Source: Candidatus Saccharimonadota bacterium (GTDB lineage Bacteria > Patescibacteriota > Saccharimonadia > Saccharimonadales > Saccharimonadaceae). From it: DNA of 64,000 bases. The translations under genes and the position numbers were made by a program. Shown one piece after another: positions 9,187 through 62,210 of this stretch. The stretch lies in assembly GCA_002726935.1 (NCBI GenBank), contig PBTC01000014.1, forward strand, positions 66,218 through 130,217, read 5' to 3'. The first letter of the stretch is position 1. Every line of letters begins with the position of its first letter. The notes beneath the pieces are model-generated. The model worked only from the letters and a program-made list of their open reading frames with translations. It was not told where the DNA came from and did not search any database.

Positions 9187-10664
9187 GCGAAAAGGACCCC
9201 GTGTTAGAAAAAAACGAGCGCACAGTGGAGTTGTGGCTGGACGGTAAACACGTCGCAACAGTCGAGTTCCTGTTGGGCAAGGTCAGTCAGTGGTCTTACA
9301 CTGACGAATGGATAAAGAATGGTTTTGAGCTTTCCCCTGCCTTGGACTTTAATGCCGAAGTAAAAGCAAGCTCTGCGGAGGCGTATCTTGAGAATCTCTT
9401 TCCCGAAGGCGAGGTTTTTGATTCCTTGGTCGAGATCCTTGGCGTTTCCAAGGGCAACCATTTCTCAATCCTGAAGTCGCTTGGCAAAGAGACGTCGGGG
9501 TGCTTGATGTTTTTGTCGCCGGGAGAAGAGCCCGATCTGATTGAGCCGTCCATCAGGATTATCGGGGCCGATGAATTCGAGAGGCGTGTAGCTAAATCAG
9601 ACGACCTTCCCGTGACGTCTTGGGACGGTCGCGTTCGTCTTTCCGTTGCTGGTCTTCAAAGAAAAATCAATGTTGTGTATGCGCAGCAAGGTGAGATCAT
9701 CGGGCTCCCAGAGGGATCTTACAGTTCAACTCACATCATTAAGTTTGAAAAGAACAATCAAGAAAACCTTGTTCTGAATGAAAAGTTAATGCTTGAGACT
9801 GCGCGACGACTTGCAATTCCCGTATGCAATACGGAAATACTCTCAATTGCAGATAGGCGTCTGCTTTTGGTTGAAAGGTTTGATCGCTCGGTTAGCGAGG
9901 AAAACAAGGTCACTGTTAAAACTAAGATGCCAATCGCTGGGGTAAAACCGGAGGAAGAGCTGCACGTACTGGAATCCAACTATTCGCATGGGGTGATGGA
10001 CTTGCCTTCGGTTAAGAGGGTTCACATTATCGACGGTTGCCAAGCTCTAGGCCTTAGGTCTGAATTGAAGTACGAACGTCACCTCGGCGATGGGGCTGAA
10101 GTGCGTCACAGTCGTCTTGGTGTCTCCTTTGAGGACCTTGGTGCCCTCTGCGCTTTGTGTGTTGACCCTAAAGCGGTACGAATCTCTATTCTAAGGTGGG
10201 GGATTTTTAACCTGGCGGTGGGAAACTTTGATGCTCACGGTAAGAACATATCCTTTACTTTGTCGGAAAAGGGACTCGATCTAGCACCTTTCTACGATTT
10301 GGTGAGCATTGAATCTTTGGGCGGAAAGTTCAAGGATACTTTTGCTATGGGTTACGGGGATAACTTTGGCGAAACACCATTCGAATGGGGTGATCTATGT
10401 AAGTTTGCGTTGGATCTCCGGGTCGAAGAAAGTGATCTGATAAGCAATGCACTAGATATCTTAACGTCCCTTCCTGGGGCTCTTAAGATGTCTTTGTCAT
10501 CGCTGCCCCCAACAACCGACAAAGAAAACACCTTCATCACGAAGCTGAGGCATGTGTGCGAAAGCAGATCAGCATACCTGGCCGGCGTCATACAGAAGGA
10601 AATCAACGGAAGCCTAAACATGCTTAGCGCTCAGCATACCGATCCAGGGAATTCATTTAATTGA
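9183..10664 (+). CDS. hipA: HipA-family Ser/Thr kinase toxin with N-terminal HipA-N module
   Basis: LSVAGLQRK P-loop, THIIKF, LLVERFDR, GNFDAHGKNISF, LAPFYDL. Confidence 0.9.
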   Translation: MSEKDPVLEKNERTVELWLDGKHVATVEFLLGKVSQWSYTDEWIKNGFELSPALDFNAEVKASSAEAYLENLFPEGEVFDSLVEILGVSKGNHFSILKSLGKETSGCLMFLSPGEEPDLIEPSIRIIGADEFERRVAKSDDLPVTSWDGRVRLSVAGLQRKINVVYAQQGEIIGLPEGSYSSTHIIKFEKNNQENLVLNEKLMLETARRLAIPVCNTEILSIADRRLLLVERFDRSVSEENKVTVKTKMPIAGVKPEEELHVLESNYSHGVMDLPSVKRVHIIDGCQALGLRSELKYERHLGDGAEVRHSRLGVSFEDLGALCALCVDPKAVRISILRWGIFNLAVGNFDAHGKNISFTLSEKGLDLAPFYDLVSIESLGGKFKDTFAMGYGDNFGETPFEWGDLCKFALDLRVEESDLISNALDILTSLPGALKMSLSSLPPTTDKENTFITKLRHVCESRSAYLAGVIQKEINGSLNMLSAQHTDPGNSFN

Positions 10665-10712: not shown

Positions 10713-11564
10713 ATGCAACACCAATACGAAGCACTCTGCCAGCGAATCCTCGATAAAGGCGTGATGGTCGCCAACGAGCGAACGGGTGTGGGCTGCTTGA
10801 CCGTGGTTAATGCCGATTTTGAATACCACGTTGGCTTTGGGGAGTTCCCCTTGGTGACGACCCGCAAGGCTCCATATAAGGCGGCCATTGCGGAGCTCTT
10901 GGGCTACCTTCGTGGTTATAGTGACGCGCAACAATTCGCGGACATCGGCTCGCCAACTTGGTTTGCAAACGCCAACGAAAACAAAGCGTGGCTTGCCAAT
11001 CCTCACCGTAAGGGCGAGAACGACATGGGTCGGGTCTATGGCGTTCAGGGGCGATCCTGGGCAAAGCCGGATGGATCCACGATCGATCAGCTCGTGAAGG
11101 TCTATGCCAATTTGAAAGCAGGTAAAGACGATCGCGGTGAAATCATCACGTTCTGGAACCCGGGCGAGTTCGATCAAGGCTGCTTGCGCCCCTGTCTTCA
11201 TTCCTACCAATTCTCAGTGCTGGATGGCACTTTGTACTTGAACGCAACTCAGCGATCCATTGATGTGCCGCTTGGTTTGGTTTTCAACATGGTCCAGGTG
11301 TACACCTTCCTTGCGCTGATGGCCCAGATCACCGGTTTGAAGCCCGGGGTTGCCTATCACAAGCTGGTTAATTGCCACATCTACGAGAATCAGATTGAGC
11401 TGATGAAAGAGCAGCTAACGCGCGAGCCGTTTGAGAGCCCGCGTCTGCTCGTCAATCCCGAGATCAAGTCCCTTGATGACGTGCTGACCTGGGTGTCCAA
11501 AGATGACTTCACGGTTGCGGGCTATGAACATCATCCGGCCATTTCCTACCCGTTTTCTGTGTGA
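10713..11564 (+). CDS. thyA: Thymidylate synthase
   Basis: [31 protein letters not shown] catalytic Cys, [19 protein letters not shown]. Confidence 0.96.
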
Positions 11565-12567: not shown

Positions 12568-12600
12568 ATCGATGACCTTGTCTACCATGAGAGATCGTAT

Positions 12601-13107
12601 ATGAGCAAAACAGATTCCCAAGAGTTTCCCCTAGAGTTCCTCGTGGCTTTCGCGTTGATCTTTATTGTTCTTATTGCTGCGGTGGCGTCTATTCTTGCTG
12701 ATGATGTTGAGAATGTTAAAGGGGGCTATGCACAAACCGTGGCTGAGCAACTACCAGAGAGTGAGCCGTCCCTCAAGGCTTTAGCGCTTAGCCTTGCTCA
12801 GCACAACAGGGATACACATCAAGAGTTAACAAACTCCTCTGGAAAGAACGAGCCTCTTTCGTGGTACCTGGCAAGCCAACCGGAACTATTCGCTGTGCCC
12901 AATGAATGGTTTTCTTTGCTTGCAAAAAGCGAAGGAATTCCTCCTGAAAAGTTAGCCGAACTCATTGGCGATGCTGGGAGGGGGCCAATTTTTACAACAG
13001 AGGCCGCCCAGTGGGTGCTGGAGGTCTATGAATACAAAAGGTCGCGTGCTGCTCTAGAGGCTCAGAAGCCTGCGTTGCAGGCGCTGCGGGACTCAATCAA
13101 ACAATAG
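12601..13107 (+). CDS. PELF family membrane protein, copy 2
   Basis: TM helix + QPELFAVPNEWFSLLAKSEGIP...TTEAAQWVLEV. Confidence 0.75.
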   Translation: MSKTDSQEFPLEFLVAFALIFIVLIAAVASILADDVENVKGGYAQTVAEQLPESEPSLKALALSLAQHNRDTHQELTNSSGKNEPLSWYLASQPELFAVPNEWFSLLAKSEGIPPEKLAELIGDAGRGPIFTTEAAQWVLEVYEYKRSRAALEAQKPALQALRDSIKQ

Positions 13108-13170
13108 TTCGTTGCCGTACCCTATTGTGGGCGGATACCGAGTAAAGTTTTTTAAGCGGAGAAACTTGAT

Positions 13171-13854
13171 ATGCCATTTCAATCTCTAGCAGCCCGTATG
13201 GGTATCTTCACCGTATTTGCTGTAGGCGCCATTCTTTATTTGGCTTTTGCTAACCCATTTATTAAGGGGGGTCATGCACAAACAGTTGAAGGAATGATTC
13301 CTCATGAGCATGCATCACTACGAGGCCTGGCAAAGGACCTCGCTGTTCATAATGAAAAGGTGCACAAGGCATTGAAATCAGATGCTGGCTCAATCAGAAG
13401 CCTGGGTTGGTTCATGTCGCGTTACCCGGAAAAATTCAACGCGCCTGCCGACTGGTTTGAGAAGGTGGCGCAAACCAAAGAAATTCCCACATCAAAAATC
13501 GAAGCACTCTTGGAGATAGCAGGGACGGGGCCTGTATCTACAAATGAGGCGGCTGACTGGTTGCTAGAAGTCTATATGCACCTAGAAAGAGAGAGTTCTG
13601 CAGAAAACCAGCAGATCGGTGTCAATGCCTTGCGTGGACCTGATAAGTCCCCGATTAAAGAAGATGCGGCACGGCAAGTAGCGGAAAAGGCCGTTGCGTT
13701 AATGTTCATCGACCTCAAACTTACCTCCATGACGCCAGAAACCGCTTCCTTCGAGGCGGTGGTCGCTGGGAAAAAGTGTGATATCGATCTCGCTAACAAT
13801 GTTTCCCCAGAACCTAATCGATGGTTGGTTACAAAATTGAATTGCGAGAGCTGA
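13171..13854 (+). CDS. PELF family membrane protein, copy 3 (full length, with two-Cys C-domain)
   Basis: TM helix + YPEKFNAPADWFEKVAQTKEIP...STNEAADWLLEV. Confidence 0.75.
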   Translation: MPFQSLAARMGIFTVFAVGAILYLAFANPFIKGGHAQTVEGMIPHEHASLRGLAKDLAVHNEKVHKALKSDAGSIRSLGWFMSRYPEKFNAPADWFEKVAQTKEIPTSKIEALLEIAGTGPVSTNEAADWLLEVYMHLERESSAENQQIGVNALRGPDKSPIKEDAARQVAEKAVALMFIDLKLTSMTPETASFEAVVAGKKCDIDLANNVSPEPNRWLVTKLNCES

Positions 13855-15051: not shown

Positions 15052-15414
15052 GTGGCAGGGATTAAGGCTTTAACGAAAACCCAACGGCTTTTGAAGTCCT
15101 TCGCGGCAGTCGATCTGTGCGACGAACATCGCAATTACGGGGATGAGACCCCCGCCCTTAGAGATTTCGGCGTGGCGCCCTCAGTGGCGGCTGCCTTGAT
15201 TCGATGGGGTGAGAAGCACGATCTCGTCAGTACGTTCGAAAGTGACCTGGGTTGCTCAAACAATACATATTCTTGGCAGTCCTCCTTCTTGGCGGCGGCT
15301 GTAGAAAAGCACCTCGAAATGTTCGGTGAGGCGGGCAAAGCTGATCTGCCGGAGTCCCTTATTCGTTACGCCCAGGAGCACTCCCTCAAGTCTCAAAAAG
15401 GCGTCGCACTGTGA
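15052..15414 (+). CDS. Hypothetical protein
   Basis: GTG start after GAGG SD; overlaps next gene start (GTGA). Confidence 0.6.
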   Translation: MAGIKALTKTQRLLKSFAAVDLCDEHRNYGDETPALRDFGVAPSVAAALIRWGEKHDLVSTFESDLGCSNNTYSWQSSFLAAAVEKHLEMFGEAGKADLPESLIRYAQEHSLKSQKGVAL

Positions 15415-17543
15415 GCCAAGACCTAGATCTCTCTGGGGCGTTGAATCTGTGGGTGGAGCTGTCTGGGGTCGATCCCTCTAAGACAAGCTTCACCTGGGGT
15501 GATTTGGGCATTCTCGATATGCACAGGGCTCTGAAAGAGGCGCTCGACCTCGATCATACTGAAATCACGGGCAGCCTTATTTTCCAATACGTTACCTCGG
15601 AGTACTTCAAAAACCGCAGTTTCTCAGTTCAGGAGCTTCTTGATAAGCCAGATCAGGTTTCAGAATATCTGGCCAAGAGTGCGGCCCTACTCCGCTTTCT
15701 ATCCCGTGATGAGATTACAAAAATCTCTAGGGAGTTTAGCGCCAACATGGCCAAAGCTTTGGAGGTATACGGAGCCACTGGCGAGGACGTCATGAGTATC
15801 GTCAGGGCTCCACACCGCCTTGCTTTGCTTCGGCGTGATGCTTTTCGAACCTTGCAGAATCTGAGCGTCCACCAATTTCTTTCTGGCGCTCCTGAAAAGC
15901 CCGAGGTCAAGCCGGTCTATGGAAAACAGGTCTACCGGTGGGACAACATCAATTCGATGCTCAAGGCGTTAATTTCGATGCCCAGCGGTGTGACTGTTAA
16001 TCTAATTGTTCACCCGACTGATCCCTATCGGTCTTATTTTGCTTTTGCGATTAGGAATGGCGGGAACCTGTTTGTGTTCACCGACAAGGACAAGACGCCA
16101 CACCCCCTGTCGGAGGACCTCACCCGCCGTCCTGATAAAGTCTTGGCGGCGCGCGAGGCTCGCAACTGGTTCCCCTATGAGTTGATGGGCATGGCCTTTA
16201 CTGACGACGGCAAGGTCTTTGTTCAGCCCATCGAGTCCAGGGATCTGGTGTCCTATCAGTCTTCAATCCGACCGCTTAAGCATCTTTCCAGTCTGAAGGC
16301 GCCCACCGTTGTGTGGCTTACAATGATGCTGGACCTGATCATGGAGAAATTCTGGAATGAGGGCTTTCAGGCGCCAGCGCTCTCCTATACCGGTGAGATG
16401 GTGAAGGTGAATACCCCCCTGATTGAAGAGGCCGCATCGCGAGGCCTGGTTGTGGCCGGCTATGCCCCATTGAACCTGCCCGAGATTGAATTGCATGAAA
16501 TCAGGTCCGGACAGGGTCCCGCAAACCCAGCCTTTGGGATTGCTGCGCAACCGAACGGCCTCTCCGAAGATGTGTCTTCGGTATTGAATTCTGAGGGCAC
16601 TACCGGCAATTGGATGGAAGATCGCTACGGGCACTTAGTGACAAAAGATGTCCTAAACCTGGTAGCCAGTCCGGCCGATTGCCTCGCACTTAATTTTGAC
16701 GGAAGTGGGCCTGCACAAGCAAGTAACCCCGCCGGAGAGATGGTTCGTCTGGACGCGCGAAACGTAACAAAGCCCTCCGGTTGGTTCGGTGGTCCTGATT
16801 ATGTTTCTCAAGTCCAACTAAACAGCCTGGATTCGACATCCTTTGGTACCGCCGAGGATATCCGGAAAGACCGACTCTTTCTGGCCAGGTCTAATTATGC
16901 GAAGCTGATTCAAAAACACGCCGATGATGAGTTCTCAGCGCGAAAGAAAGAGATTCTGGAATGGTTCTCTTCACATGTGAGGGCAAATCATGTGAATCTT
17001 CTTCCCTTGATGGTGGAGAAAGAATTGCTGGTTCAATGCCCCAAGCCTGGGTCTTTTGATGAACGTGGAGACGGCTGGGCCGCGGAGGTCAACGGTGTAT
17101 TTAAGCGTCGCTTTATGGAGCGTTTTAGCCTGGTTGGTGAAGACGCGTGGCGCAAGGATCACCTCAACTTCTATCCGAGCCAAGGCGCCGTGGTGTTTAA
17201 AGGCCCTGGCTACAAAAATAATGCACCTACGTGCTTTCAAACGGGTGCGCCCTCCTCTGTGGTTGTTAAGTTTATGCCGGAGACAGCCGAGGACCTGGCT
17301 TTCCTTGCTGGTGTGACAAAAAGCGATTTGCCCGATGTTCTTCAGCACTGGGGGTTGCGAAAGCCCTATGTAGGCAATCATCTATTGCGCCGCGTCGATC
17401 CCATGGAATGGCAATGCGAAAACCCCTGGAGAGGGCTGGCATTCACGTGTGCGTTCTTTTTCTCGACCCGCGCGATCAACAGGCTCGAAAAATCATTTTC
17501 CGGGCGAGCTGCCCCAACACTTCCGGGTGAATCCCAACAATAA
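15411..17543 (+). CDS. Large hypothetical protein (710 aa)
   Basis: Long ORF with aromatic-rich motifs (RNWFPYELM, NWMEDRYG, PMEWQCENPW); function unknown. Confidence 0.8.
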   Translation: MSQDLDLSGALNLWVELSGVDPSKTSFTWGDLGILDMHRALKEALDLDHTEITGSLIFQYVTSEYFKNRSFSVQELLDKPDQVSEYLAKSAALLRFLSRDEITKISREFSANMAKALEVYGATGEDVMSIVRAPHRLALLRRDAFRTLQNLSVHQFLSGAPEKPEVKPVYGKQVYRWDNINSMLKALISMPSGVTVNLIVHPTDPYRSYFAFAIRNGGNLFVFTDKDKTPHPLSEDLTRRPDKVLAAREARNWFPYELMGMAFTDDGKVFVQPIESRDLVSYQSSIRPLKHLSSLKAPTVVWLTMMLDLIMEKFWNEGFQAPALSYTGEMVKVNTPLIEEAASRGLVVAGYAPLNLPEIELHEIRSGQGPANPAFGIAAQPNGLSEDVSSVLNSEGTTGNWMEDRYGHLVTKDVLNLVASPADCLALNFDGSGPAQASNPAGEMVRLDARNVTKPSGWFGGPDYVSQVQLNSLDSTSFGTAEDIRKDRLFLARSNYAKLIQKHADDEFSARKKEILEWFSSHVRANHVNLLPLMVEKELLVQCPKPGSFDERGDGWAAEVNGVFKRRFMERFSLVGEDAWRKDHLNFYPSQGAVVFKGPGYKNNAPTCFQTGAPSSVVVKFMPETAEDLAFLAGVTKSDLPDVLQHWGLRKPYVGNHLLRRVDPMEWQCENPWRGLAFTCAFFFSTRAINRLEKSFSGRAAPTLPGESQQ

Positions 17544-20827: not shown

Positions 20828-21091
20828 ATGAGTGATTCGATTTACGAGCTTAGGTTCAGGTACCAGCAGGAAAACACATTTAAGCTAACTTACACAACTC
20901 GCAATTCCCTGGTTGGCAGCCTAAAGAACACCGTGCTGTTTGCCGGGGTGCCTCTGGACCAAAATGAATTGTTGGCTGAGTTTCCGCAGTCCAGGCAGAT
21001 TGCACTGTCGTACCAGGACTTCCACAAGGAACTAAAAGAGCCATTCAAGTATTTCTGTTCAGGCGATCATGAACTGCGACGTCTGACTTAA
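20828..21091 (-). CDS. Small hypothetical protein
   Basis: Overlaps the stop of the PcfJ gene (ATGA). Confidence 0.55.
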
Positions 21092-23217
21092 GGTTTCGTT
21101 GCTCGATTAAAGGCCTTTTGGAATTCCTTACACAGCAAAGTTGCTGCGCGCTTTTCTTGCATGCTTGGAGAACGGTTCTCAAATCCTCGCACTTGATCAA
21201 TAGACCATCTGTTGCCGATCTGGCGACTTAACGACACCGTCAAGCGGTCTTTCTTGTGATTTTCAGGAAGAATTTGTGCAGAAAAGACTCTGTTTTCACC
21301 CGAAATACACCTGTTTGCATAAGTGCCTACGCAATGCCCCATAGCTTGCCCTTCCTCAATGAGTTCAAGCGCATGAGAGAGTTCTTTGAATGTGTAGGCG
21401 CCGACTTGGTGGGTCGCAAGGGTGCATGGCCACGTAAGCTGTTCGCAAGTATCCACTTGGAATCGAGCTAGCAACATCTCATCGTGCGTGATTTGAAGGA
21501 TTCTGATCGCGCGTGAGGGGGTTATTTTTCTTGGTCCGATTAGCTCGTTCATTCGATGGCTTGGCAATTGACGCAGGGCGTCTACCGCGTCACTGCAAAG
21601 GTCTTTGAGGTTCTCAACAGAGTGCCTGCTTGTCAGCACGTGCATGGACAGGGCTCGGAAAAAATGTCCATGTGGGTCTGAGAGTTGACCTGTGCGTCGA
21701 TCGTTAATGATATGAACAGCGTGTTTGTAAACTTGATACAAAAACGATAGGATCCGCGCTCGTGGCTTGTGTGGACAAAAGCTGCCCACTTCGTTGAGAA
21801 AGCTCACTACAATCTCTGCGGTGTCAGTTGGGGGCTCGCCCCATTCTTCGCAAGGAGTATCCGTGACGTCGCTGTCGCTGTGCGTGACTGGTTGCCCCGT
21901 ATTTGTGGACTGATCCCATGGTTGTGTCAGTGCCGCGCCAACAGGGATCAACAACTTGCGGGCGTCGATTGCACTCATTCTTTTGAGCAGCCGCCAGCCG
22001 GCCGGCCGCATGCCTCTTTTTTTGTATTTCGAGCGTAGCTCGTTGATTCCTTCAAAGCGGTCTTCGTGAGAAAGTTTGTGAAAGTCCGGCATGAGAGGAA
22101 TCAAAACAGGATATTCATTGTGGAATTCGCTCAACAGGATTGACCTATCCTTGCACGTGGCCATGCGGTTGTAATCGCTTAATCGAGCGTAGATTCCGTA
22201 GACTTTGGCGGTGGATGAAAGCGTCTCTTTGTCAAAGAAATTCTTCAGATATCCGGTGCCAGGACCAGCAAGGTAACGCGATCCTAGGGCCTGTTTGTTA
22301 ATCGGGTTGGCGCGATTATAGGCCCAGCGATGGACAGATGGATAAGGCGTGTAATTGGTTTGGTGAGATCGCCGAGGCAAAAAGCCGTACAGCTCGCCCG
22401 AGGGTAGTGTTATTTTGTGTTTAGCCTGAATTTCCTCAAGCAGGTTTCGTGCAGAGTAATTTAAAAGATTGGTGCAGTACTGCAGAAGATATCGCCAGGT
22501 CTGAGGCCCTATCACTTCGAGATGGTCGAGATGGACCGCCTTCAGCGGTTTAATTGCTTTGATATAGGTGTTCTTTTTGGCAGCGGGGAGCTTTAAGAAA
22601 TAGAGAATTTCCTGATAAGAGCCTAAACAGTAGCCGCGGATTTTTTCTTTCCCGTCCTTCCAAAACACGTAAGGGCCAAATCTAATCCAGTTTCCCGAGC
22701 CTTCTTGTCTGCATGGCAGGTAACCATGTTGAAACTGGGCGGAGATCAAGTCTTGCAGACATCGAGAGACGACAGTGGGGTTTTGTTTGAAGTGTTCTAC
22801 AAAGCGATTTTCATGCGCGAGGACACGAGGAAAGTCCTTTGGCTCAAGACCGTTTTTGTACCCGTGTCGAGCACAATGATCCAGGTCGCAAAACCGTTTG
22901 CCACGATGATTCTCAATAAGCCCATAAGCAAACAGACAAGCCTCTAAGAGATCGCGTCTTTTGCTATCAATCTCGTCGGAGAATGATCGGTTCCAGGTCT
23001 CAATGGCGCTATCACTTTGGAATGGCCCACACTCCTTGTGCAGATCAAACAAAATTCCATAGGATTTGTTAAGCGTGAAATCCTTGGGCTTTCCGGCCCA
23101 GTACTTCTTAGAGATTGAAGAAGGTGTTTGCAAGGATTTAACTTCCTCGTCTGGTAGGTAGCGATCTACCTCCGCAAGGATCTCGTTCTGGGGCGTTAAC
23201 CGGGTTGCCATGTCCAT
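21088..23217 (-). CDS. PcfJ-domain protein
   Basis: C-terminal LIEEGQAMGHCVGTYANRC...RLTVSL...QVRGFENR. Confidence 0.85.
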   Translation of the reverse strand: MDMATRLTPQNEILAEVDRYLPDEEVKSLQTPSSISKKYWAGKPKDFTLNKSYGILFDLHKECGPFQSDSAIETWNRSFSDEIDSKRRDLLEACLFAYGLIENHRGKRFCDLDHCARHGYKNGLEPKDFPRVLAHENRFVEHFKQNPTVVSRCLQDLISAQFQHGYLPCRQEGSGNWIRFGPYVFWKDGKEKIRGYCLGSYQEILYFLKLPAAKKNTYIKAIKPLKAVHLDHLEVIGPQTWRYLLQYCTNLLNYSARNLLEEIQAKHKITLPSGELYGFLPRRSHQTNYTPYPSVHRWAYNRANPINKQALGSRYLAGPGTGYLKNFFDKETLSSTAKVYGIYARLSDYNRMATCKDRSILLSEFHNEYPVLIPLMPDFHKLSHEDRFEGINELRSKYKKRGMRPAGWRLLKRMSAIDARKLLIPVGAALTQPWDQSTNTGQPVTHSDSDVTDTPCEEWGEPPTDTAEIVVSFLNEVGSFCPHKPRARILSFLYQVYKHAVHIINDRRTGQLSDPHGHFFRALSMHVLTSRHSVENLKDLCSDAVDALRQLPSHRMNELIGPRKITPSRAIRILQITHDEMLLARFQVDTCEQLTWPCTLATHQVGAYTFKELSHALELIEEGQAMGHCVGTYANRCISGENRVFSAQILPENHKKDRLTVSLSRQIGNRWSIDQVRGFENRSPSMQEKRAATLLCKEFQKAFNRATKP

Positions 23218-36787: not shown

Positions 36788-38047
36788 TCATTCCTTACGG
36801 ACCGCTCCGCATTCAACCAAGATCCCCAACAAATAATCTCCTCCCAGTGCGATCCTCATCAGGTGCGCTCTTTCCAAGGGGGTGATTGTGTGGTTTGAGA
36901 TCCGATCGATTAAATCTGGTGGCCTGGGAACAAAGGCATGGCCCATGAGGGTCTCCATGAGTACCTCGGGGGTCTTGTAGTATTGCAGGTCATTCTTGAC
37001 CGAATCGAAAATGAAGTCTGGATGCTTAGGCGGTTCTGCGCCCCCAGACCGGAGTTTTTCTCCTTTTTTGATGATCTCAATTACCCTGGCGGTGGCCTTG
37101 TCGGCATCCATGCTCCAAATTTCTTGGGTTCGGAGTTGCAGTTGATCTAGAGACACGTTGTACGCGGATGAGCTTTTCTCAGTATTAAATACGAATGCCA
37201 TTGGCCCATCGGGTTTGGCGTTGGCATTTTTGTTAAAGATGGGATAAAACGCTGGATGCAGCGGGGTCTCTCCGTCTGAAAACTTCTTGTAGTCTTTTTT
37301 TGGATCCATCAAGAGAGAACTTTTGGTTGGGTCACCCAAGGCGTCTTCGCCCTCAATGCTGTTGCCCATAAGACTTACCGTTAAGTCGGTCGTTAACCCT
37401 GTTCTCGAAATACACAGCAGGCGTGAGCCAATAGGCGTTGTCAGGAGTAGATTCCAAACGGTTTCTGCCTCCTCTCTTTTTACTGCTTCGTTTTTTTTCA
37501 CTGTGTAGGATCGACTTTCCACTAGGGAGGCGAGCATGAAAAAAGGCTCAGCATTAGAGGGTACGAACATCTTTCTGTACTTGGAGTTTGGCAAAAACAG
37601 GCTATGCAAAAAGTTCGTCAGCGCGCCAGCCATCCTTGCTCGGTGAAAGATGCCTTCAAAAAATGGGTTTTCCAGCTCATATCCGCATGAGATTGCTACA
37701 CGATCAGTGTGCGCCGGCTCTAGCCCGCTCTGTTCTCGCAGCAGCTTTGCCTGAGCCAGGATGCCTGCAATCGCTTTCCCATCTAAAGACGTCTTTTGCT
37801 CATTTCGGGCTTCTTGCCAGCTCTGGCCAAGAGCCTCCAGTTCAGTGAGTGTGTACTGTTCGGTGAATGCCACTGAATGGATTTCTTCGACATATCCCTT
37901 GTTCGGATCAAGCTCGATCCCCTGTAGTGGTTCAAGCACGTTCTTGATGATCGCAAGCGACCTGGACACCAATGTGTCCTGGAACGTATCGATCATGTCG
38001 CTCTCGATCAGTGATGGATTGATTCGAACTCTTTTTTCTTGGTTCAT
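36788..38047 (-). CDS. Hypothetical protein (419 aa)
   Basis: Long ORF. Confidence 0.7.
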   Translation of the reverse strand: MNQEKRVRINPSLIESDMIDTFQDTLVSRSLAIIKNVLEPLQGIELDPNKGYVEEIHSVAFTEQYTLTELEALGQSWQEARNEQKTSLDGKAIAGILAQAKLLREQSGLEPAHTDRVAISCGYELENPFFEGIFHRARMAGALTNFLHSLFLPNSKYRKMFVPSNAEPFFMLASLVESRSYTVKKNEAVKREEAETVWNLLLTTPIGSRLLCISRTGLTTDLTVSLMGNSIEGEDALGDPTKSSLLMDPKKDYKKFSDGETPLHPAFYPIFNKNANAKPDGPMAFVFNTEKSSSAYNVSLDQLQLRTQEIWSMDADKATARVIEIIKKGEKLRSGGAEPPKHPDFIFDSVKNDLQYYKTPEVLMETLMGHAFVPRPPDLIDRISNHTITPLERAHLMRIALGGDYLLGILVECGAVRKE

Positions 38048-41919: not shown

Positions 41920-42208
41920 CGGACTCAAAACGCTGACCAACGGTAGTAAAGGCAAGGCCTTTTCTCTAGGCCTTTCTTTCCCTTATGATTGGTCAAACCC
42001 AGATATCCCCGACGATGCGTTGATCGCAGGCGTTCTATCTCGCGAGATATTTGAGGATATTTGCATCGTTTGTTTGCATTTTGGTTTTGATCGCGTTTCC
42101 TCCGTCTTCCAGGCGATGGTTGATTGCGGGAATGTTTCTTTTGCAGTCAGCCAAATACCTCGCATGCTTCGCAATATTCAGGAGGGGTTCAATCGTGAAA
42201 ATGGATGA
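41912..42208 (+). CDS. Putative antitoxin partner of the downstream nucleotidyltransferase
   Basis: FPYDWSNPDIPDDALIAGVL; overlaps the toxin gene start. Confidence 0.6.
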   Translation: MTDGLKTLTNGSKGKAFSLGLSFPYDWSNPDIPDDALIAGVLSREIFEDICIVCLHFGFDRVSSVFQAMVDCGNVSFAVSQIPRMLRNIQEGFNRENG

Positions 42209-43001
42209 AGTGCTATCCTCGGAGGCCAAGGAGGTATTTCTTTACCTGGCCAAGCAGCCGGAGATGTCGGGCTTTTGTCTGATAGGAGGAACCGCGTTAG
42301 CTCTTCAGGTTGGGCACAGGCGAAGCCAAGATTTGGACTTCTGCCTCTTTGACAAAAAACTTAATACGCGTGCGCTCTCGTCAATGCTCAAACGAATGGA
42401 GTCCGATAGATTTAACATTCGGTTGGCGACGTCGCCGAGTTTAATTTCTTCCTCTTTGATCAATGGTGTTGATATCCTCGATTTAGCCCAGGACTACCAG
42501 ATCAACAACACGAAAGTCACCTTTTTTGCGAGATATGACGAGCCCTATCAGTTCTTCTCTGGCTTTAAAAGGAGAATTGAACCCGGGTCTTCGTTCGATG
42601 TTATGGGCCTAGAGGGCTTGTTCTCGATGAAGTCTCATGTAATCCATAAGCGTCTGGCTTCAAGAGATCTTTTTGATCTTAAGTGGTTTATTTCAAACGG
42701 ACGGCAAATTCAGGAAATTCTAGATGTTGCGCAAAAGGCCGACCTATTGTGCTCTCCTGGGCATGCGGTTAACGTGTTAACTGGCAAGGTGCCAGTCGGC
42801 CCACTGGATGAGGGCTTGGATGCTGTAGGCGTCACTGAATCACTGGAAGATATCTACGTCTTTTTCGAGGAGAAAGTTAGGGAAATGGAAACGAGCATTG
42901 CCAGGGCTATTAAGCAAGAGCGCACCTGCCAGATCTGCAAGAAATTCCCTTGTGGCTGCGGCTCTGGATTCCGTGAGTCAGGCAGTTCAGGTCCAAACTG
43001 A
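42195..43001 (+). CDS. AbiEii/AbiGii-family nucleotidyltransferase toxin
   Basis: LIGGTALALQVGHRRSQDLDF; RDLFDL. Confidence 0.8.
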   Translation: MKMDEVLSSEAKEVFLYLAKQPEMSGFCLIGGTALALQVGHRRSQDLDFCLFDKKLNTRALSSMLKRMESDRFNIRLATSPSLISSSLINGVDILDLAQDYQINNTKVTFFARYDEPYQFFSGFKRRIEPGSSFDVMGLEGLFSMKSHVIHKRLASRDLFDLKWFISNGRQIQEILDVAQKADLLCSPGHAVNVLTGKVPVGPLDEGLDAVGVTESLEDIYVFFEEKVREMETSIARAIKQERTCQICKKFPCGCGSGFRESGSSGPN

Positions 43002-50020: not shown

Positions 50021-50061
50021 GAACCATCAGCTCTTTAAAAACATAATCTTATTTTTGATCA
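50021..50061 (+). promoter_or_regulatory. Short AT-rich CRISPR leader (41 nt)
   Basis: AT-rich gap between the csf3 stop and repeat 1. Confidence 0.5.
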
Positions 50062-52110
50062 GTTGCATAGCTCTGCTTATTTTCAGGGCATGAAAGATTG
50101 TGAAAAAAATCAGGCGCGTCAGGCATGTTTCATTGCCCTCCTCATTGTCAGGGCATGAAAGTTCACGAAGCAGAGCAAGTCCTTCTTCAGGTTGAATAGC
50201 CCTGCTCATTGTAAGGGCATATAAGTCAGCATCTTGCTGATGATCACCTCCCGCTGTTGCAAGGCCCTGCTTATTGTCAGGGAATGAAAGTGTCCTACAT
50301 CAGCAAACTTACTAATCTCAGTTGCAAGGCCCTGCTCATTGTCAGGGCATGAAAGTTTCCACATTACAGCCGACAGTGTTGGTGGGTTGCATGGCCCTGC
50401 TCATTGTCAGGGCATGAAAGACACACCGTAGCTCAACCACAAATTCTTGTGTTGCATGGCCCTGCTTATTGTCAGGGCATGTAAGTTAGCCGCGTCCTTA
50501 TCTTCGTTGTACGAAGTTGCATAGCCCTGCTTATTGTCAGGGCGTGAAAGGCCTTTTCGCTGGCTAGTGTAGTGTTCTTTGTTACAACGCCCTGCTATTT
50601 TTCAGGGCATGAAAGAATCATTGCGCTATTTGAAAAAGGTGCCTAGTTGCATGGCCCCGTCCTTTGTCGGGGCATGAAAGTTGGCGATCTGCGGATAGTT
50701 GAATTCGCTCGTTGCATGGCCCAGCTTATTGTCAGGGCATGAAAGGGACTTGCCCACGGTTGAGATTTCAGTATTGTTGTATGGCCCTGCTCATTGCCAG
50801 GGCATGAAAGTAGTCAGGTGATTGCATTCATCAGTGCTATGTCGCATGGCCCTGCTCATTGTCAGGGCATGAAAATAGTGACATCCAGTCCATGAGGGAA
50901 TCGTTGTTGCACAGCCCTGCTCATTTGTAGGGCATAAAAGGATCAGCACCCATGTAGGTCGCTCCTGTGCGTTAGATTGCCCTGCTCATTGTCAGGGCAT
51001 GAAAGTATTTCCTGCAATTCATACATAGGTGTGCCGTTGAATAGCCCTGTTCAGTGTCAGGGCATGAAAGAAGGTGTCGAATTAAAAGCTGAAAAAAATG
51101 CGTTGCATGGCCCTGCTCGTTTTTAGGGCATGAAAGTAGAAATCCCATCGAATTGATTTCTCGATCGGCTGTATAGCCCTGCTGGTTACCAGGGCATGAA
51201 AGTAACATGAAGGCTAGAGTGCATGTCCAATGGCTGTATAGCCCTGCTGGTTACCAGGGCATGAAAGTATTTCCTGCAAGTCATACATAGGTGTGCCGTT
51301 GAAGATTCCTGCCTATTGTCAGGGCATGAAAGAAGGTCTTTGTCTTTGAGAAACAAAAGCTGATTGCACTGCCCTGCTCATTGTCAGGGCGTGAAAGTAA
51401 GACGATGACTGTTTTCTTCATTTTGATGGTTGCATGGCCCTGCCGATTGTCAGGGCATTGAAGCAAGTGACCCATGGCTTGTGCTCGTGGTGCGTTGTGT
51501 TGCCCTGCGCATTGCAGGGCATGTAAGACTTTGCTCGCAACTTGTCGCTGAGATAAAGCTGGATTGCCCTGTCTATCGTCAGGGCATGAAAGTCACTGAA
51601 GACTCGCTGCAAGACGAAATAAGTTGCATTTCCCTGCTCTTCGTCAGGGAATGTAAGTGTAGACCATCTGGCTAATTGCGTTTTCTGGTTGCATTGCTCT
51701 GCTCATTGTCAGGGTATGAAAACTGAGTGCCAGATCTTTTTTTTACGTTGCTGTCTTATCGCCCCTTTTTGTAGGGGCATGAAAGTGTTGTGACCCTTGG
51801 AGTCGATCTTTGGGGTTAAATGGCCCTGCTCATTGTCAGGGCATGAAAGAAGCTCCGCAGAATTCACATAGAGTTGAGAGTTGCCTGGCCCTGCTCGTCG
51901 TCTGGGCATGTAAGAATTTGCTCGCAACTTGTCGCTGAGATCAATTTGGATTGCCCTGTTTATCGTCAGGGCATGAACGAGCGGTGCGTGAATCCTTGGG
52001 AAGTGCGCGGTTGTATAGCCCTGTTCGTTGACAGGGTATGGAAGCTAAAACACCCCTATTCTCGGCAACCCCGAGTTTGCATTGCCCTGTTTATTGTCAG
52101 GGCGTGAAAT
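50062..52110 (+). CRISPR. CRISPR array: 32 degenerate repeats (consensus GTTGCATGGCCCTGCTCATTGTCAGGGCATGAAAG, 35 nt) and 31 spacers of 29-31 nt
   Basis: Regular ~65-nt period; GCCCTG/CAGGGC stem plus ATGAAAG 3' handle. Confidence 0.97.
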
Positions 52111-52182: not shown

Positions 52183-52893
52183 TCACCACAAGGGAGGGGC
52201 ACCGAGTGACACCTGCGCGCGCTTTCCAAGCGAAGCCTCAGAAATATTTAAAGAAGGCTCAAGGCGCAACAAGGCCTCTTTGATGGTCGTGTGGTCAGCC
52301 ATAAGGTGGTCAACCGAGGCGCCAGGCTTGATCTCACATAAAGATTTCCAGTTGGCGGTGGTAAGGTCGTGTTGTGAAATCCCGGACGCCAGCGGAAGGC
52401 CGCCGGCTTCATTGACAACCAGAAGCGTTCTTTGCCTGTTCTCATCCACCGTGAATTCAGTGCGTCGACCAAGCCGGTTGATGAACCAGTACGATTTACC
52501 ATCCTCTAGCTTCCACGGGTTGATCCGGTCATGGGGCCTTTGTGCAATCCAGACGCCTACGCCTGGATGAATAACTGGTACCGGAGGAACTCGTATCCCT
52601 GTGCGCTGCTCGAACTCCCCTATCGCATTCTCCAGCAACGTCCACTGGCTTGTATCCACTACGTCGCCCGTCCGGTGTACACGACACCGCCAATCTTCCC
52701 CAGGCTCCTTGTTCTCAACGGTGAAGCGCTCATAGTCCCCAGATCCGTCTTTCTTGCTTTGAATCACCCCGATTAACACCGCGCAATCCGGCGTGCCGTC
52801 CTCAATGTCCACATGGTCGGCCATCAGCACCTGCCCCCGGTTCTCATGCAGATCTTTGTAGGTCACCTTGGTCTGAACTTTGATAGGCATCAC
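52183..52893 (-). CDS. Hypothetical protein, tandem paralog A
   Basis: KVTYKDLH...INPWKLEDG..Y..INR.GRR.EF shared with 52914-53630. Confidence 0.7.
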   Translation of the reverse strand: MMPIKVQTKVTYKDLHENRGQVLMADHVDIEDGTPDCAVLIGVIQSKKDGSGDYERFTVENKEPGEDWRCRVHRTGDVVDTSQWTLLENAIGEFEQRTGIRVPPVPVIHPGVGVWIAQRPHDRINPWKLEDGKSYWFINRLGRRTEFTVDENRQRTLLVVNEAGGLPLASGISQHDLTTANWKSLCEIKPGASVDHLMADHTTIKEALLRLEPSLNISEASLGKRAQVSLGAPPLW

Positions 52894-52913: not shown

Positions 52914-53630
52914 CTAAAATGAGGGCGACGAAGACTTTGCTGCAGTCGTAGGAAGGCTCAAGCTATCAAGCGTCGTTGAAAACTCAGGATTAAGCGACAT
53001 TAACGCATTTTTGATCTCTTGTGGTCCCACAAGAAGCCTCTCCTCAGCAGGGCTCGCTCCAAGAACTCGGATGGTTCTCCAATCCTCGGCGCCCAGGTAG
53101 GCCGCTGGTACCCTCGGTCCTTCCTCCGTGTCTAACCAAATGCCACCGCCCTCCCCTAGTCTCGCTAAGAATTCCTTGCGCTTTCCGTAGCGGTTGATAC
53201 TTGCGTATCTCTGGCCATCTTCTAGCTTCCATGGATTAATAGTCTTGGTAGAGTTTCTAGCCTCCCAAATCCCTACGCCTGGGCTTATTACTGGGATTTG
53301 TGGAAGCACAACCCCGGTGGCTTTCTCAAAGGCCGTGATTGCATTAGGAAGCGTCATGGGCTGGTGCCTTTGGGGCGCGATCTTGGCCCATTCGTCCACG
53401 AAAACCCAATATTGGCCGCCTTCATGGAAGTCAATCAAAAAGTAGTCATGGCCATCTTCGCGAATCCTGTTTTCAATCTTCAAGCCGGCCACGATGCTGC
53501 CCGTGGGCCGCCCGCTTTCTATCCAAACGCCATTGGCTACTAAGGCCTCTCCCGGATGTGCGTGAAGGTCAGAGAAAGTGATCTTCGGCTTCCTGGTGAT
53601 TGGAATGATGTGCTCTTTTGTTGCTGTCAT
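52914..53630 (-). CDS. Hypothetical protein, tandem paralog B; C-tail AAKSSSPSF
   Basis: KITFSDLH...INPWKLEDG..Y..INR.GKRKEF. Confidence 0.7.
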   Translation of the reverse strand: MTATKEHIIPITRKPKITFSDLHAHPGEALVANGVWIESGRPTGSIVAGLKIENRIREDGHDYFLIDFHEGGQYWVFVDEWAKIAPQRHQPMTLPNAITAFEKATGVVLPQIPVISPGVGIWEARNSTKTINPWKLEDGQRYASINRYGKRKEFLARLGEGGGIWLDTEEGPRVPAAYLGAEDWRTIRVLGASPAEERLLVGPQEIKNALMSLNPEFSTTLDSLSLPTTAAKSSSPSF

Positions 53631-54208: not shown

Positions 54209-55102
54209 TCACATCGAAAATTTGCTCCCTGGGGGACTTCCTGGTTTCATGGCTGCATTTGCTTTTTCAATCACCGTAGACAACGACGAACCCAGATACC
54301 CCCAGAAATCCGGATTCTGGATTGTCTCAACCGAAACCCTTGTAGGCAGAAATCTTGCCATCTCGGACTCGAAATCAGCTCTAGTTTCGTCGGCATTTAG
54401 GACCTGATCTTTGTGTTTCTCTATCAATCCAAGGAATTCGTTTTGGTCTTTCCCCCTCATTTCCAGCTTCTGGGTGATGTGCGCTCGGGAGGCTTCAGCA
54501 CGCTGACGTGTTAACCAAACGATATCCCACAAATCACGAGGTTTGATTCTTCGCTCACGATAGGCAAAGGCAATCAGTTTGTCTGCCATGATTTCATTAA
54601 GACTTTGCACGGGCACAAGAACGCCAGAGACCTGAGAGCCAATGCCGTAATGGTCTTCGAGCGGCCTGTTTAGGACGCTAAGTGAGTCATATGCACAGAC
54701 ATCGATGTGCAAACGTTGCGAAGGAAGATCTTTTCTGTAAGAATCCCGCGTAATGGTCACTCTCCAGCTCGCAGTATCCCCTCTCATTTCAGTTGGTGAT
54801 CCTACTGAAACCGGCAACCCATATTTCGTCTCAAGGCATTCTTTAAGGTGAGCATCGAGACCATCAAAAGATTTTGGATTGAAGTTCACTCCAGCAGTGA
54901 AATCTAGGTCTTCGGACAATCGATTGGAGCCGTAACACATCCTGAGCGATGTGCCTCCAATGAATGTGATCTGGCTTAATACTCCCGCATTCTTTAGAGC
55001 CTGCATCAAATCGTGATGCAAGACCTCCTTTTCTACGGCAGCCTCCAAACCCACGTACTCGGGGTGCCGGCTAATTACATCCTTGACTATCTCATTAAGC
55101 AT
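54209..55102 (-). CDS. AbiEii-family nucleotidyltransferase toxin; C-tail KPGSPPGSKFSM
   Basis: EKEVLHHDL, FIGGTSLRMCYGSNRLSEDLDF, KPRDLWD. Confidence 0.88.
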   Translation of the reverse strand: MLNEIVKDVISRHPEYVGLEAAVEKEVLHHDLMQALKNAGVLSQITFIGGTSLRMCYGSNRLSEDLDFTAGVNFNPKSFDGLDAHLKECLETKYGLPVSVGSPTEMRGDTASWRVTITRDSYRKDLPSQRLHIDVCAYDSLSVLNRPLEDHYGIGSQVSGVLVPVQSLNEIMADKLIAFAYRERRIKPRDLWDIVWLTRQRAEASRAHITQKLEMRGKDQNEFLGLIEKHKDQVLNADETRADFESEMARFLPTRVSVETIQNPDFWGYLGSSLSTVIEKANAAMKPGSPPGSKFSM

Positions 55103-60147: not shown

Positions 60148-60443
60148 TTAGCGTCCCGGGCAATTCGCTCGGGTATCTTACTTCAGCCCCCGGACAGATA
60201 TTTTGATTCTCGAATCGATGTTTTGTGGTTTCAAGAATTTTTCTATGCTATATTTTTGACAAGCGCTTTGGTTTAAGCGTGCCGTCTGCATGGCGAAGAC
60301 TCCTGTCAAAATCAACAATGAAGCAATGAGATTTTTTGTCCTTCACACTTTAAAAACTGTGGAGCAGCAAAGGAAAAGCAGACTAATCCAGGTCAACAGG
60401 TTTCTGTTTACTTGCAGCTCCCTATCGTTTAAAGGTGATTGCA

Positions 60444-62210
60444 ATGTCATTGGAACAAATCAAAAAGCAGGCTAAGCGTCTGCACAAGATTCTCCCCGAG
60501 GTACTCCCTGAAGTCGTCTCTCAAAGAAAAGACTTCAATCTGGCGATTTGCCAGGAAATCGTGGCCAAGCAGTACCGTTACCCCAGTTTTCATGCGGCCA
60601 CGCAGTCTGTTTCGGAAAATGTGTCCTTCTCCCCATCTGGCGCGCCGGTTCGCCTGGGATCGACATTGTTGGCATCCCCTGGCCCGCTGGTTGATGAGAC
60701 CGCGCTCTCAAACGTTTGCAAAAAGGTCGTCAAGATTCTCGATGCATACCCAATGATTGGAGAGACCGACCGACGTGAATACCATGGTGGAATCGGCTTT
60801 TTCGAGGTGGCCGCCAAGAAAAGCTTTGATGTTTATGCCGCCTGGGTTGGCACCAAAAGAGGGGTCGATGAGTACTCTCTGCTTGTTATCCCTTCATCTA
60901 GCGATGCTTCGCTATTTGAGGCGGGCGCCTTTCTGAACAACGACGCTTTTCGGAGCTTTTTCCTTAGACGGATTGAGGCGGAGATCGATCTGCATAGCGA
61001 TTTCTCCAGCATGAAATTCGTGAGCGTCTGCGGTCTATTTGGCCGATCTGATCGTACCGAGGAGCACAGCCTTCATCTGTTTCCATTCAATGAGGTTGAC
61101 GATTTCGATCTTTCGGTTGAGTGGCACTGCCCGCGCAATCCAGACCCAGTGCTCCGAGACGCGCCTATACATGTCCTTCACGCCGCACGATCGCAAACAG
61201 TCCCGTGCTTTAGCGCTCAGCACATCCTCATCTACCTCCATTGGGTTCTTGAGCGTGTCAGCGTCGAGAGCGAGAAAAGTTGGGTAGTGCAGAATCTTTA
61301 TAACCATAAGCTACTGAACGTCGGCCGGCTTGTCGATGCGCTCAGTACTTGCGCTTATGCCGCGTCAAGGCGAGGCGATCACCATGACATGGGGGTGGAG
61401 TTCACACTGCCTCCCGAGGAGAAATCCCCGCTGGTCAGATTTCTAGAGTCGTATAGCACGGCTGTCGCAGGCGGAACCTCCTTGATCAAGGCGGACCGGT
61501 CGAGGGGTACGTCTCACTTGTCGGGCGAATACCAATACTTTGTTGGTGCCACGCCTCTGTCTGGCGTGAAGAGCCTTCTTAAGGGCTTTAGACGAAAGCC
61601 ACTTAATTTTGGCGCAGCACCTTTGTTGGTGTTCTGCACACGTTCATTTACTCCCGCGGCGGGTTTAATTGCATCCTTCGTGAGCGCAAGCCGAGATCAG
61701 GGTAGACGAATACTCTACCTGGCTCGATCGGCCGAGGTGTTTCTTCCAGAACATCTTCGAGATGCGGTGGACTTTGTTGATCTTGGCATCCTGGAGCAAA
61801 GCCCGGAGGAGGTGAATACCCGCCTGAAGTTTGCGTTCTTTAAGTCGCTTCAATACCGGCGGTTGAGCCTCGTCATTGAGGATTGCGACCACCTTAGCAC
61901 CCACCCAGCTTTGAACAGTTTTTTGAACCAGATCAAAGACCAGAACATACCAGCTCTTCTCCTTTCCCAGGGGGAGAGTTACTCGGACCAATCACGGCTC
62001 TTTTCGTTACTTGGAAAACGGGAAACCGCAGTGATGTTTTCGATGGCCGATGGGTCTAGGTCTGCGGCCTGGTTTAATCAATCGCTTGGCTTGGGAGACG
62101 GATTGGAGGCCTCGAAGTTTCGAGAGGATTATTCCCAGGGCGATCTGCTGATTTACAAGCGGTTGCAGGGCAACCCCACGAAGGGCGATTGGTTCGAGCT
62201 GAACCAATAA
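60444..62210 (+). CDS. Large protein with shared N-terminal helical module; C-terminal part possibly a degenerate P-loop NTPase
   Basis: MSLEQIKKQAKRLHK...LAICQEIVAKQYRYPSFHA; RILYL and LVIEDCDHL but no Walker A. Confidence 0.75.
   Translation: MSLEQIKKQAKRLHKILPEVLPEVVSQRKDFNLAICQEIVAKQYRYPSFHAATQSVSENVSFSPSGAPVRLGSTLLASPGPLVDETALSNVCKKVVKILDAYPMIGETDRREYHGGIGFFEVAAKKSFDVYAAWVGTKRGVDEYSLLVIPSSSDASLFEAGAFLNNDAFRSFFLRRIEAEIDLHSDFSSMKFVSVCGLFGRSDRTEEHSLHLFPFNEVDDFDLSVEWHCPRNPDPVLRDAPIHVLHAARSQTVPCFSAQHILIYLHWVLERVSVESEKSWVVQNLYNHKLLNVGRLVDALSTCAYAASRRGDHHDMGVEFTLPPEEKSPLVRFLESYSTAVAGGTSLIKADRSRGTSHLSGEYQYFVGATPLSGVKSLLKGFRRKPLNFGAAPLLVFCTRSFTPAAGLIASFVSASRDQGRRILYLARSAEVFLPEHLRDAVDFVDLGILEQSPEEVNTRLKFAFFKSLQYRRLSLVIEDCDHLSTHPALNSFLNQIKDQNIPALLLSQGESYSDQSRLFSLLGKRETAVMFSMADGSRSAAWFNQSLGLGDGLEASKFREDYSQGDLLIYKRLQGNPTKGDWFELNQ

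Follow-up and report, generated by a model that had tools for sequence, protein, structure and literature searches.

We analysed a 64,000-nt stretch of DNA (hereafter referred to as the window) on contig PBTC01000014.1 of assembly GCA_002726935.1, a 1.34-Mb metagenome bin labelled Candidatus Saccharimonadota, in which five cas genes are followed by a CRISPR array (Table 1). Family models for all five genes bear out the type IV-A assignment proposed in an earlier reading of the letters alone (the sequence-only reading). The csf1 product scored below the cut-off of its model, and its identity is backed by the PADLOC model Csf1_0_IV (E = 8e-13), by its position in the operon, and by the Pfam family Csf1 recorded on the orthologues in the related contigs L010, L012, and L013. 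The best PADLOC model for csf4 was Csf4_1_IVA1 (E = 2e-102), and csf2 matched typeIV_Cas7 (E = 2e-45), its product being only 24-34% identical to Csf2 of sequenced plasmids. PADLOC further places the DinG and the Cas6 of the window with subtype IV-A1 models, and we assign the locus to type IV-A CRISPR-Cas, IV-A1-like and of the Csf5 type. Compared with the 95%-identical relative L010, the five cas genes differ at 0.5-4.5% of second and 16-21% of third codon positions (2.6% and 20.9% in csf4, 0.7% and 17.9% in csf5); all five are intact and strongly constrained and, on the simplest reading of these rates, functional. No Cas1 (PF01867) was found anywhere in the assembly, and neither cas1/cas2 nor an effector nuclease was found among the open reading frames (ORFs) around the locus. 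The array starts 41 nt past the csf3 stop codon, and no sigma-70-like promoter was found in the 41-nt leader, so that the array is probably transcribed by read-through from csf3.

Table 1. Features of the type IV-A locus (positions in the window; R and S, repeats and spacers of the array; L010 to L018, related contigs)
Feature	Position	Strand	Basis
csf4 / CasDinG helicase, 905 aa	43504..46221	-	TIGR03117 cas_csf4, E 1e-171, 573 bits (cut-off 400)
csf5, Cas6-like CRISPR RNA (crRNA) endonuclease, 273 aa	46308..47129	+	NF045575 cas6_csf5, E 7e-47, 160 bits (cut-off 150)
csf1, Cas8-like large subunit, 311 aa	47122..48057	+	TIGR03114, E 3e-16, 59.7 bits (below cut-off 140)
csf2, type IV Cas7, signature gene, 392 aa	48135..49313	+	TIGR03115, E 5e-62, 210 bits (cut-off 130)
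csf3, type IV Cas5, 236 aa	49310..50020	+	TIGR03116, E 6e-54, 183 bits (cut-off 140)
Leader, 41 nt, conserved motif CTCTTTAAAAACA	50021..50061	+	motif kept in L018, L010, L013, L012
CRISPR array, 32 repeats (33-36 nt) and 31 spacers (29-31 nt)	50062..52110	+	hairpin folds in 32/32 repeats
R18-S18-R19, unique spacer between two strongly variant repeats of the same sequence	51168..51267	+	adjacent difference 0
Spacer S15, near-duplicate of S19 (51268-51297), 1/30 differs	51006..51035	+	
Spacer S23, near-duplicate of S29 (51915-51944), 2/30 differ	51528..51557	+	

The repeats of this array differ from one another at 7.3 of 35 positions on average, where the canonical expectation would be near-identity away from the trailer end. 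As the sequence-only reading had stated, R6 (50386-50420) is the sole repeat identical to the array consensus, GTTGCATGGCCCTGCTCATTGTCAGGGCATGAAAG, and the degeneracy is array-wide: 31 of the 32 repeats are distinct, the only identical pair being R18 and R19. Its map of the variation was also accurate, with 53 non-consensus letters in positions 1-8 (mainly 5, 7, and 8) and 55 in the loop (15-22), compared with 21 across the 12 positions of the stem and 17 at the 7-nt 3' end (hereafter, the tag). Repeats are 35 nt long throughout except R23 (34 nt), R27 (33 nt), and R32 (36 nt), and the spacers, 29 unique and two near-duplicate pairs, keep the length range given by that reading; the unit length is nearly constant (63-66 nt between repeat 3' ends over 32 units). 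The same few alternative letters (T17, A/T8, T32, and G29) recur in varied combinations among the repeats, and private variants are common too, many being confined to one repeat, including the indels in R23, R27, and R32. Tandem Repeats Finder recovered only 2.5 copies of the 32-repeat array, and an Rfam search of the array with E up to 1 returned no CRISPR-DR or other family. Degenerate arrays of this kind are largely invisible to CRISPR finders that depend on repeat identity; thus, type IV-A arrays and their spacers may be under-counted.

We then examined the predicted hairpin of the repeat. In a hand alignment of the 32 repeats, 186 of the 192 pairs that the 6-bp stem (9-14/23-28) could form are present, whereas scattering equally many substitutions over each repeat at random yields 160 +/- 4.6 pairs and reached 186 in 0/5000 trials; the stem took 21 substitutions, compared with 48.9 expected at random (0/5000). 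With the stem hits of each repeat held fixed, the random value rises to 177.8, and the observed count was exceeded in 10/20000 trials. A shuffle control on a MAFFT alignment (A1) gave 95.2% paired stem cells versus 92.9% (3/500) and 3 compensatory cells versus 0.4 (2/500), counts that are conservative because MAFFT puts the gaps of R27 in the wrong place. The substitutions are therefore not random with respect to the stem, and the hairpin and the tag behave as the constrained parts of the repeat, as had been proposed, substitutions in the stem being rarer and more pair-preserving than expected by chance. Four stem pairs are compensated, in R10 (GCCCCG/CGGGGC), R25 (TCCCTG/CAGGGA), and R27 (two pairs, GCCCCT/AGGGGC, with a loop 2 nt shorter), exactly where the sequence-only reading had placed them, and the 7-bp stems that it saw in R23 and R31 are present as well. 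Its list of G-U wobbles (R1, R14, R17, and R26) was correct as far as it went; R20 and R31 also carry one, and R26 has two, giving seven wobbles, and it had passed over a broken pair in each of six repeats (R2, R3, R4, and R20 at stem ends; R11 and R29 inside the stem). The hairpin folds in 32/32 repeats, with minimum free energies of -7.8 to -16.4 kcal/mol. Folding also predicted a lower helix (5-31, 6-30, and 7-29, with position 8 bulged), which is 88% paired; since it varies on one side only or by wobbles, covariation lends it no support, leaving it a possible extension of the structure.

Seven close Csf2 homologues were found in public assemblies, on contigs that carry the same operon followed by an array. 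L017, a metagenome contig from ENA (an independent or the same sample), matches the window without a single difference along 3334 bp of csf2, csf3, and array. L018, a contig from JGI whose Csf3 is 97% identical, has a complete 21-repeat array (repeats L1-L21) between csf3 and the same downstream genes. Eight spacers are common to L018 and the window, with 0-4 mismatches, and they stand beside the same odd repeats: odd features are kept in the pairs R31/L20, R9/L10 (GTTACAAC), and R13/L7 (tag ATGAAAA), and R32 and L21 both have an extra T and the end GAAAT. Since these orthologous odd repeats are common to both contigs, which lie ~18% apart in synonymous-type divergence, the degenerate state predates their split, which upholds the earlier claim of an old array. 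The same degeneracy recurs in more distant relatives. L013, from a pond Burkholderiales bin (Csf2 78% identical), has 20 repeats, all distinct, with the stem CCCCTA/TAGGGG, and L025 (Csf2 55%) has a degenerate array with the compensated variants CCCTCA/TGAGGG and CCCTTGC/GCAAGGG. The arrays of Limnobacter alexandrii LZ-4 and one similar contig have more uniform repeats, with the stem ACCCTA/TAGGGT. These Limnobacter-type arrays (L016, 10717-12180; L024, 2949-4453) have spacers in common, alternate between the tags GTGAAAG and GTGGAAG, and carry near-duplicate spacers such as CGCCGAAATGGAACTCGGAAT...; the cultured strain is without Cas1. Members of this clade were found in 1/401 sampled Burkholderiales genomes and in 0/60 nominal relatives of the bin.

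Across a family set of 97 repeats from 5 arrays, 95.2% of stem cells are paired, compared with 85.4% after shuffling (0/500), and compensatory cells number 62 versus 21 (0/500). Pair 9-28 occurs as G-C, C-G, A-U, or U-A, and pair 14-23 as G-C or A-U. A stepwise path of pair change is seen at one orthologous repeat, located upstream of the common spacer S6, where the window has G-C, L018 has G-U, and L010 has A-U. G-U and A-C mismatches each lie one transition away from a Watson-Crick pair; of the two, only G-U pairs in RNA, and then on the plus strand only. For stem mismatches, the window has a G-U to A-C ratio of 7:0, compared with 7:2 for L018 and 5:0 for L016. The occurrence of G-U without A-C mismatches in the window points to selection on the plus-strand RNA of the array rather than to an effect at the DNA level.

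Comparison of the window with L018 also allowed approximate rates to be set beside one another within the same DNA. Between orthologous repeats, the 5' part (1-8) differs at 17.9% and the loop at 22.3% of positions, and the stem and the tag at 5.4% and 7.1%, respectively. The eight common spacers differ at 5.8% (14/240), compared with 18-19% at the third codon positions of neighbouring genes (Fisher test, p = 3e-8). As the free repeat positions diverge at the third-codon rate, the repeats are evidently not homogenised and drift neutrally, and evolution of the repeats at a faster than neutral rate was ruled out by the same match. The simplest reading of these rates is that purifying selection acts on hairpin, tag, and guides alike, and the spacer rate fits the earlier suggestion that the guides have been kept for long. 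Such a comparison provides rare direct evidence that long-term purifying selection can act on CRISPR spacers, and it bears on the role of type IV-A systems, that is, on whether they act as a rolling defence or in the stable silencing of rivals or genes.

The sequence-only reading had further concluded that there is little acquisition at the leader end. Acquisition is indeed slow, and in that respect the claim stands; it is not absent, and it is polarised toward the leader. Mean pairwise differences are smaller among the first than among the last seven repeats in the window (4.5 vs 9.6), L018 (2.7 vs 7.0), L013 (6.1 vs 9.6), and Limnobacter (1.9 vs 3.1), and the leader-proximal spacers are private to each of the window, L018, and L010. 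Within the window, R1-R3 are more diverged than R4-R8. Cas1-Cas2 integration duplicates the repeat that it targets, and integration into a mid-array repeat would leave two identical repeats around a unique spacer; R18-S18-R19, the expected product, is thus best explained as a recent mid-array insertion. Reshuffling is likewise evident from the order of units and from their sequences. The common spacers occur in L018 in the order S13, S14, S8, S6, S20, S28, S30, and S31, and repeat 9 of L018 is a chimera with a 5' part like R15 and a 3' end like R8 of the window. Of the near-duplicate spacers, S23/S29 (family D6) belong to a duplication that is 93% identical over 74 nt, including the upstream ATGTAAG end and most of the downstream repeat, whereas R16 and R20, which flank S15/S19, are alike in their first 6 nt and then diverge. 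A block duplication is also found in L013 (S9-R10-S10 at 12583-12676 and S17-R18-S18 at 13102-13197), where, leaving aside the first 4 nt of S9/S17, the paired spacers show 0-1 nt of difference and the inner repeat has changed from C9-G28 to A9-U28, gained 2 nt, and altered its tag. Units have therefore been reordered, duplicated, and recombined into chimeric repeats.

Taken together, we consider it probable that the window holds a working type IV-A locus (IV-A1-like, Csf5-type) that lacks adaptation genes and whose array turns over very slowly. The array would be transcribed on the plus strand, probably by the read-through from csf3, and Csf5 would recognise the 6-bp hairpin and cut at its 3' base, giving a crRNA that, by analogy, consists of the 7-nt tag (A/G)TGAAAG, a 30-nt guide, and the hairpin. 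Ozcan et al. are said to have described a 7-nt Csf5 handle in 2019, which we did not find confirmed in the literature searched. Tag lengths of 8 nt for IV-A1 and 7 nt for IV-A3 are given elsewhere (PMC11519345). With no Cas1-Cas2 of its own, the element would receive new units only rarely, through an integrase supplied by the host, for the most part at the leader end and, in at least one case, inside the array. Since nothing would re-homogenise the repeats between such events, each repeat would evolve as a separate small RNA gene: positions 5, 7, and 8 and the loop, which may be unneeded for processing or loading, would drift at the neutral rate, stem pairing, tag, and guides would be held by purifying selection, and recombination between repeats would reorder, duplicate, and delete units and make chimeric repeats. 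The earlier interpretation was largely right and is partly supported, with three limits, namely that the array is slowly renewed and reshuffled rather than frozen, that a fixed function of its guides is putative, and that the behaviour is a family trait rather than one specific to the window.

Several points weigh against this explanation. We infer transcription, Csf5 cleavage, and loading by analogy, and some units may be dead, given the six repeats with a broken pair, two of which (R11 and R29) are broken inside the stem. L013 has a G-U to A-C ratio of 7:6 and several poorly pairing repeats, which suggests decay in that lineage. The spacer divergence of 5.8% is biased downward because common spacers were partly recognised by similarity, although the synteny-defined trailer block alone still gives 6/90, and the rates for repeats are approximate because recombination among repeats blurs orthology. 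The lack of Cas1 holds for the contig and not necessarily for the true host, as we are dealing with a metagenome bin and an apparently mis-binned contig. No spacer target was found in the assembly of the window or in the loci of its relatives apart from the arrays, in PLSDB or INPHARED (31 spacers joined), or in three exact scans of IMG/VR, and the fully conserved spacer S30 had no target in the 401 Burkholderiales genomes.

Among the alternatives, the one that survives best holds that the variety arose mostly by mixing, with recombination bringing in or exchanging units between diverged arrays of related elements to give a mosaic of repeat lineages. The chimeric repeat of L018 (R15/R8), the reordered common spacers, the recurrent alternative letters, and the greater divergence of R1-R3 relative to R4-R8 all suit such exchange. 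However, many variants are private to one repeat, including the three indels, and the orthologous repeats R31/L20, R9/L10, and R13/L7 keep their odd features across lineages, as in vertical descent; we therefore regard mixing as an addition to slow turnover without homogenisation, and as an unlikely replacement for it. That the array is instead a decaying, unused relic, its hairpin a remnant of incomplete decay or of palindrome maintenance at the DNA level (quasi-palindrome template switching), would account for the distinct repeats, the six broken pairs, the missing Cas1, the failure to find a target, and the clearly damaged repeats R6, R12, and R18 of L013. We consider it improbable, because the five cas genes are intact and strongly constrained, the stem, tag, and spacers evolve 3-4 times slower than adjacent repeat positions in the same DNA, the unit length is steady over 32 units, and G-U mismatches without A-C ones, as in the window, would be foreign to a process acting on DNA. 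Selection for repeat diversity itself, by way of less inter-repeat recombination and spacer loss in an element unable to regain spacers or of crRNA levels set unit by unit, seems equally improbable. The trait does recur in several adaptation-less IV-A lineages, and duplicated blocks keep their spacers near-identical while the enclosed repeat diverges (S9-R10-S10/S17-R18-S18 in L013; S15/S19 in the window), but the divergence of the free positions (18-22%) equals that of third codon positions, so that no extra force is needed, inter-repeat recombination still occurs, as reordered spacers, chimeric repeats, and duplications attest, and the arrays of Aromatoleum aromaticum EbN1 and Limnobacter are homogeneous or nearly so. 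Finally, an artefact of assembly or binning, in which multi-strain reads were collapsed into one chimeric array, is very improbable even though repeats are hard to assemble, the contig comes from a metagenome bin and is apparently mis-binned, and several contigs of relatives break at the first repeats, because the separately deposited L017 is identical over its 3334 bp, the diverged L018 has the same odd repeats beside the same spacers, strong repeat divergence eases assembly, and the same pattern is seen in a finished plasmid of cultured Azospira.

A more tentative view may be taken of what the array is for in this clade of type IV-A systems, which we hold to be possible though on balance unlikely: it may be a heritable library of selected guides rather than a rolling record of invaders, with each unit its own small structured RNA gene and new units gained only through a fitting host integrase, possibly of type II-C. 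In that case the conserved guides would have lasting roles, for instance in the silencing of conserved genes in rival plasmids or in the host, and from the third-codon divergence of ~18% the guides may, as a rough estimate, have been kept for ~10^5 years or more. In addition, the 32 repeat variants together with ~90 from relatives offer a natural mutational scan of the repeat features required by Csf5 and the Csf complex; read in this way, pairing at 9-14/23-28 and the tag letters T30, A33, and A34 would be needed, and freedom to vary would be left to the loop, to position 8, and to the bulk of the 5' part.

As for the source of new spacers, the bin of the IV-A relative L013 also contains a divergent type II-C locus (L022 8245-13140, G062 contig C97), in which cas9 (1128 aa), cas1, and cas2 are followed by an array. 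Its array has a 65-nt unit (35-36 nt repeat and 30-nt spacer) like the IV-A arrays, its repeat is identical to IV-A repeats at 19-21/35 positions (~1e-5 by shuffling), and its leader contains a motif that matches the leader of L018 and L010 at 17/20 positions and the same offset, but not that of L013. A general likeness to type II-C repeats was rejected, as II-C repeats typical of Burkholderiales did not outscore the reverse-complement control; the resemblance stands out in this one divergent locus only. Neither Cas1 nor Cas9 was found in the assembly of the window or in Limnobacter alexandrii. We treat this locus as a lead to a spacer-acquisition partner, though an unlikely one; if true, a pairing with type II-C Cas1-Cas2, not described for type IV, would extend borrowed adaptation beyond I-E and I-F.

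We further considered the origin of the contig. The genomes of the bin's nominal relatives measure 0.6-1.0 Mb, and none has Csf2. RdgC, encoded in the window (3675-4583, minus strand), is absent from 40 nominal relatives and present in 27/61 Burkholderiales genomes, with 85% identity between the window copy and one in the pond Burkholderiales bin. The contig is most likely mis-binned, from a putative mobile element or island of Burkholderiales. Genes of the window include HipA, two AbiEii, a PcfJ-like gene, and many ORFs without a family; no replication or conjugation genes were identified in it, and a PLSDB DNA search of the locus found no match. AbiEii-type nucleotidyltransferase toxin genes flank the locus (42051-43001, plus strand; 54209-55102, minus strand), and in L012 and L013 ART-PolyVal genes adjoin dinG instead. 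The locus sits in a defence or addiction neighbourhood. Directly 3' of the array are two tandem paralogues on the minus strand (52183-52893 and 52914-53630; 32% identical, E = 1e-36), which occupy the same place in L018 and match no Pfam, NCBIfam, or PADLOC family. The HipA-like kinase (9183-10664, plus strand) and the 709-aa protein with a PcfJ-like domain (21088-23217, minus strand) lie elsewhere in the window, as do a thymidylate synthase (10713-11564, plus strand) and several large ORFs without a Pfam family (15411-17543, 36788-38047, and 60435-62210).

To see how general the pattern is, we compared arrays adjoining Csf5-type IV-A operons on sequenced plasmids. Closest in array behaviour is pAZI09 of Azospira sp. 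I09 (NZ_AP021845.1), a finished plasmid of a cultured strain, whose array (7700-9050 of L031) has 20 repeats, 19 of them distinct. All form hairpins, one adjacent pair is identical, and the 3' arm and tag GGGGTGGTTACAG are kept while the 5' part and loop vary, as in the window; in contrast, the repeat family is another one and the cas proteins are distant (Csf2 31% identical over 63%). Arrays of Geoalkalibacter, Alteromonas, and Thioalkalivibrio show moderate or trailer-end decay, that of Burkholderia MBR-1 is ~97% uniform, and that of EbN1 is fully uniform. Because degeneracy is found in the relatives and in pAZI09 as well, it is a recurrent trait of Csf5-type IV-A arrays rather than a one-off, and the window is an extreme case of it. 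The literature searched contains no description of repeat degeneracy in pAZI09 or in Csf5-type IV-A arrays at large; the novelty lies in the variant regime under which a known system evolves here. The finished-plasmid array also suggests that the blind spot of repeat-identity finders is general.

In gene order the locus is identical to that on plasmid 1 of EbN1 (NC_006823.1; Ozcan et al. 2019), with csf4 on the opposite strand and then csf5-csf1-csf2-csf3-array. The Csf5 proteins are homologous (30% identity, E = 1e-17), the Csf2 proteins are 26% identical, and the repeats match in geometry, with 7 nt that end in GAAG or AAAG placed after a G+C-rich hairpin, but the 29-nt repeats of EbN1 are all identical and separated by ~33-nt spacers, compared with 35 nt and 30-nt spacers in the window. 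Type IV-A systems encode at least three processing enzymes, Cas6, Csf5, and Cas6e (PMC8175902), and in most IV-A1/2 loci cas6 resembles Cas6f more than it does Csf5 (PMC7038947), whereas the window encodes Csf5. The IV-A3 system of Klebsiella plasmids likewise has no adaptation genes of its own. It is carried by mobile elements and needs a host integrase, acquiring spacers in trans via the host type I-E Cas1-Cas2, with a leader and repeat resembling those of the donor system (bioRxiv 10.1101/2023.06.23.546257); it differs in its Cas6e-like enzyme and I-E-like 29-nt repeats, and for the window no I-E or I-F partner is evident. A natural self-targeting crRNA of the type IV-A1 system of Pseudomonas oleovorans represses a host gene (PMC11551745), which provides a precedent for a IV-A guide kept for regulation rather than invader clearance, although, unlike in that system, no self-target was found in the assembly of the window. 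Lastly, Kunin et al. (2007) found that hairpin-forming repeats keep their structure through paired changes between the consensus repeats of different organisms (PMC1896005), whereas here covariation can be seen among the repeats belonging to one array and, from one sister array to another, at orthologous repeats.

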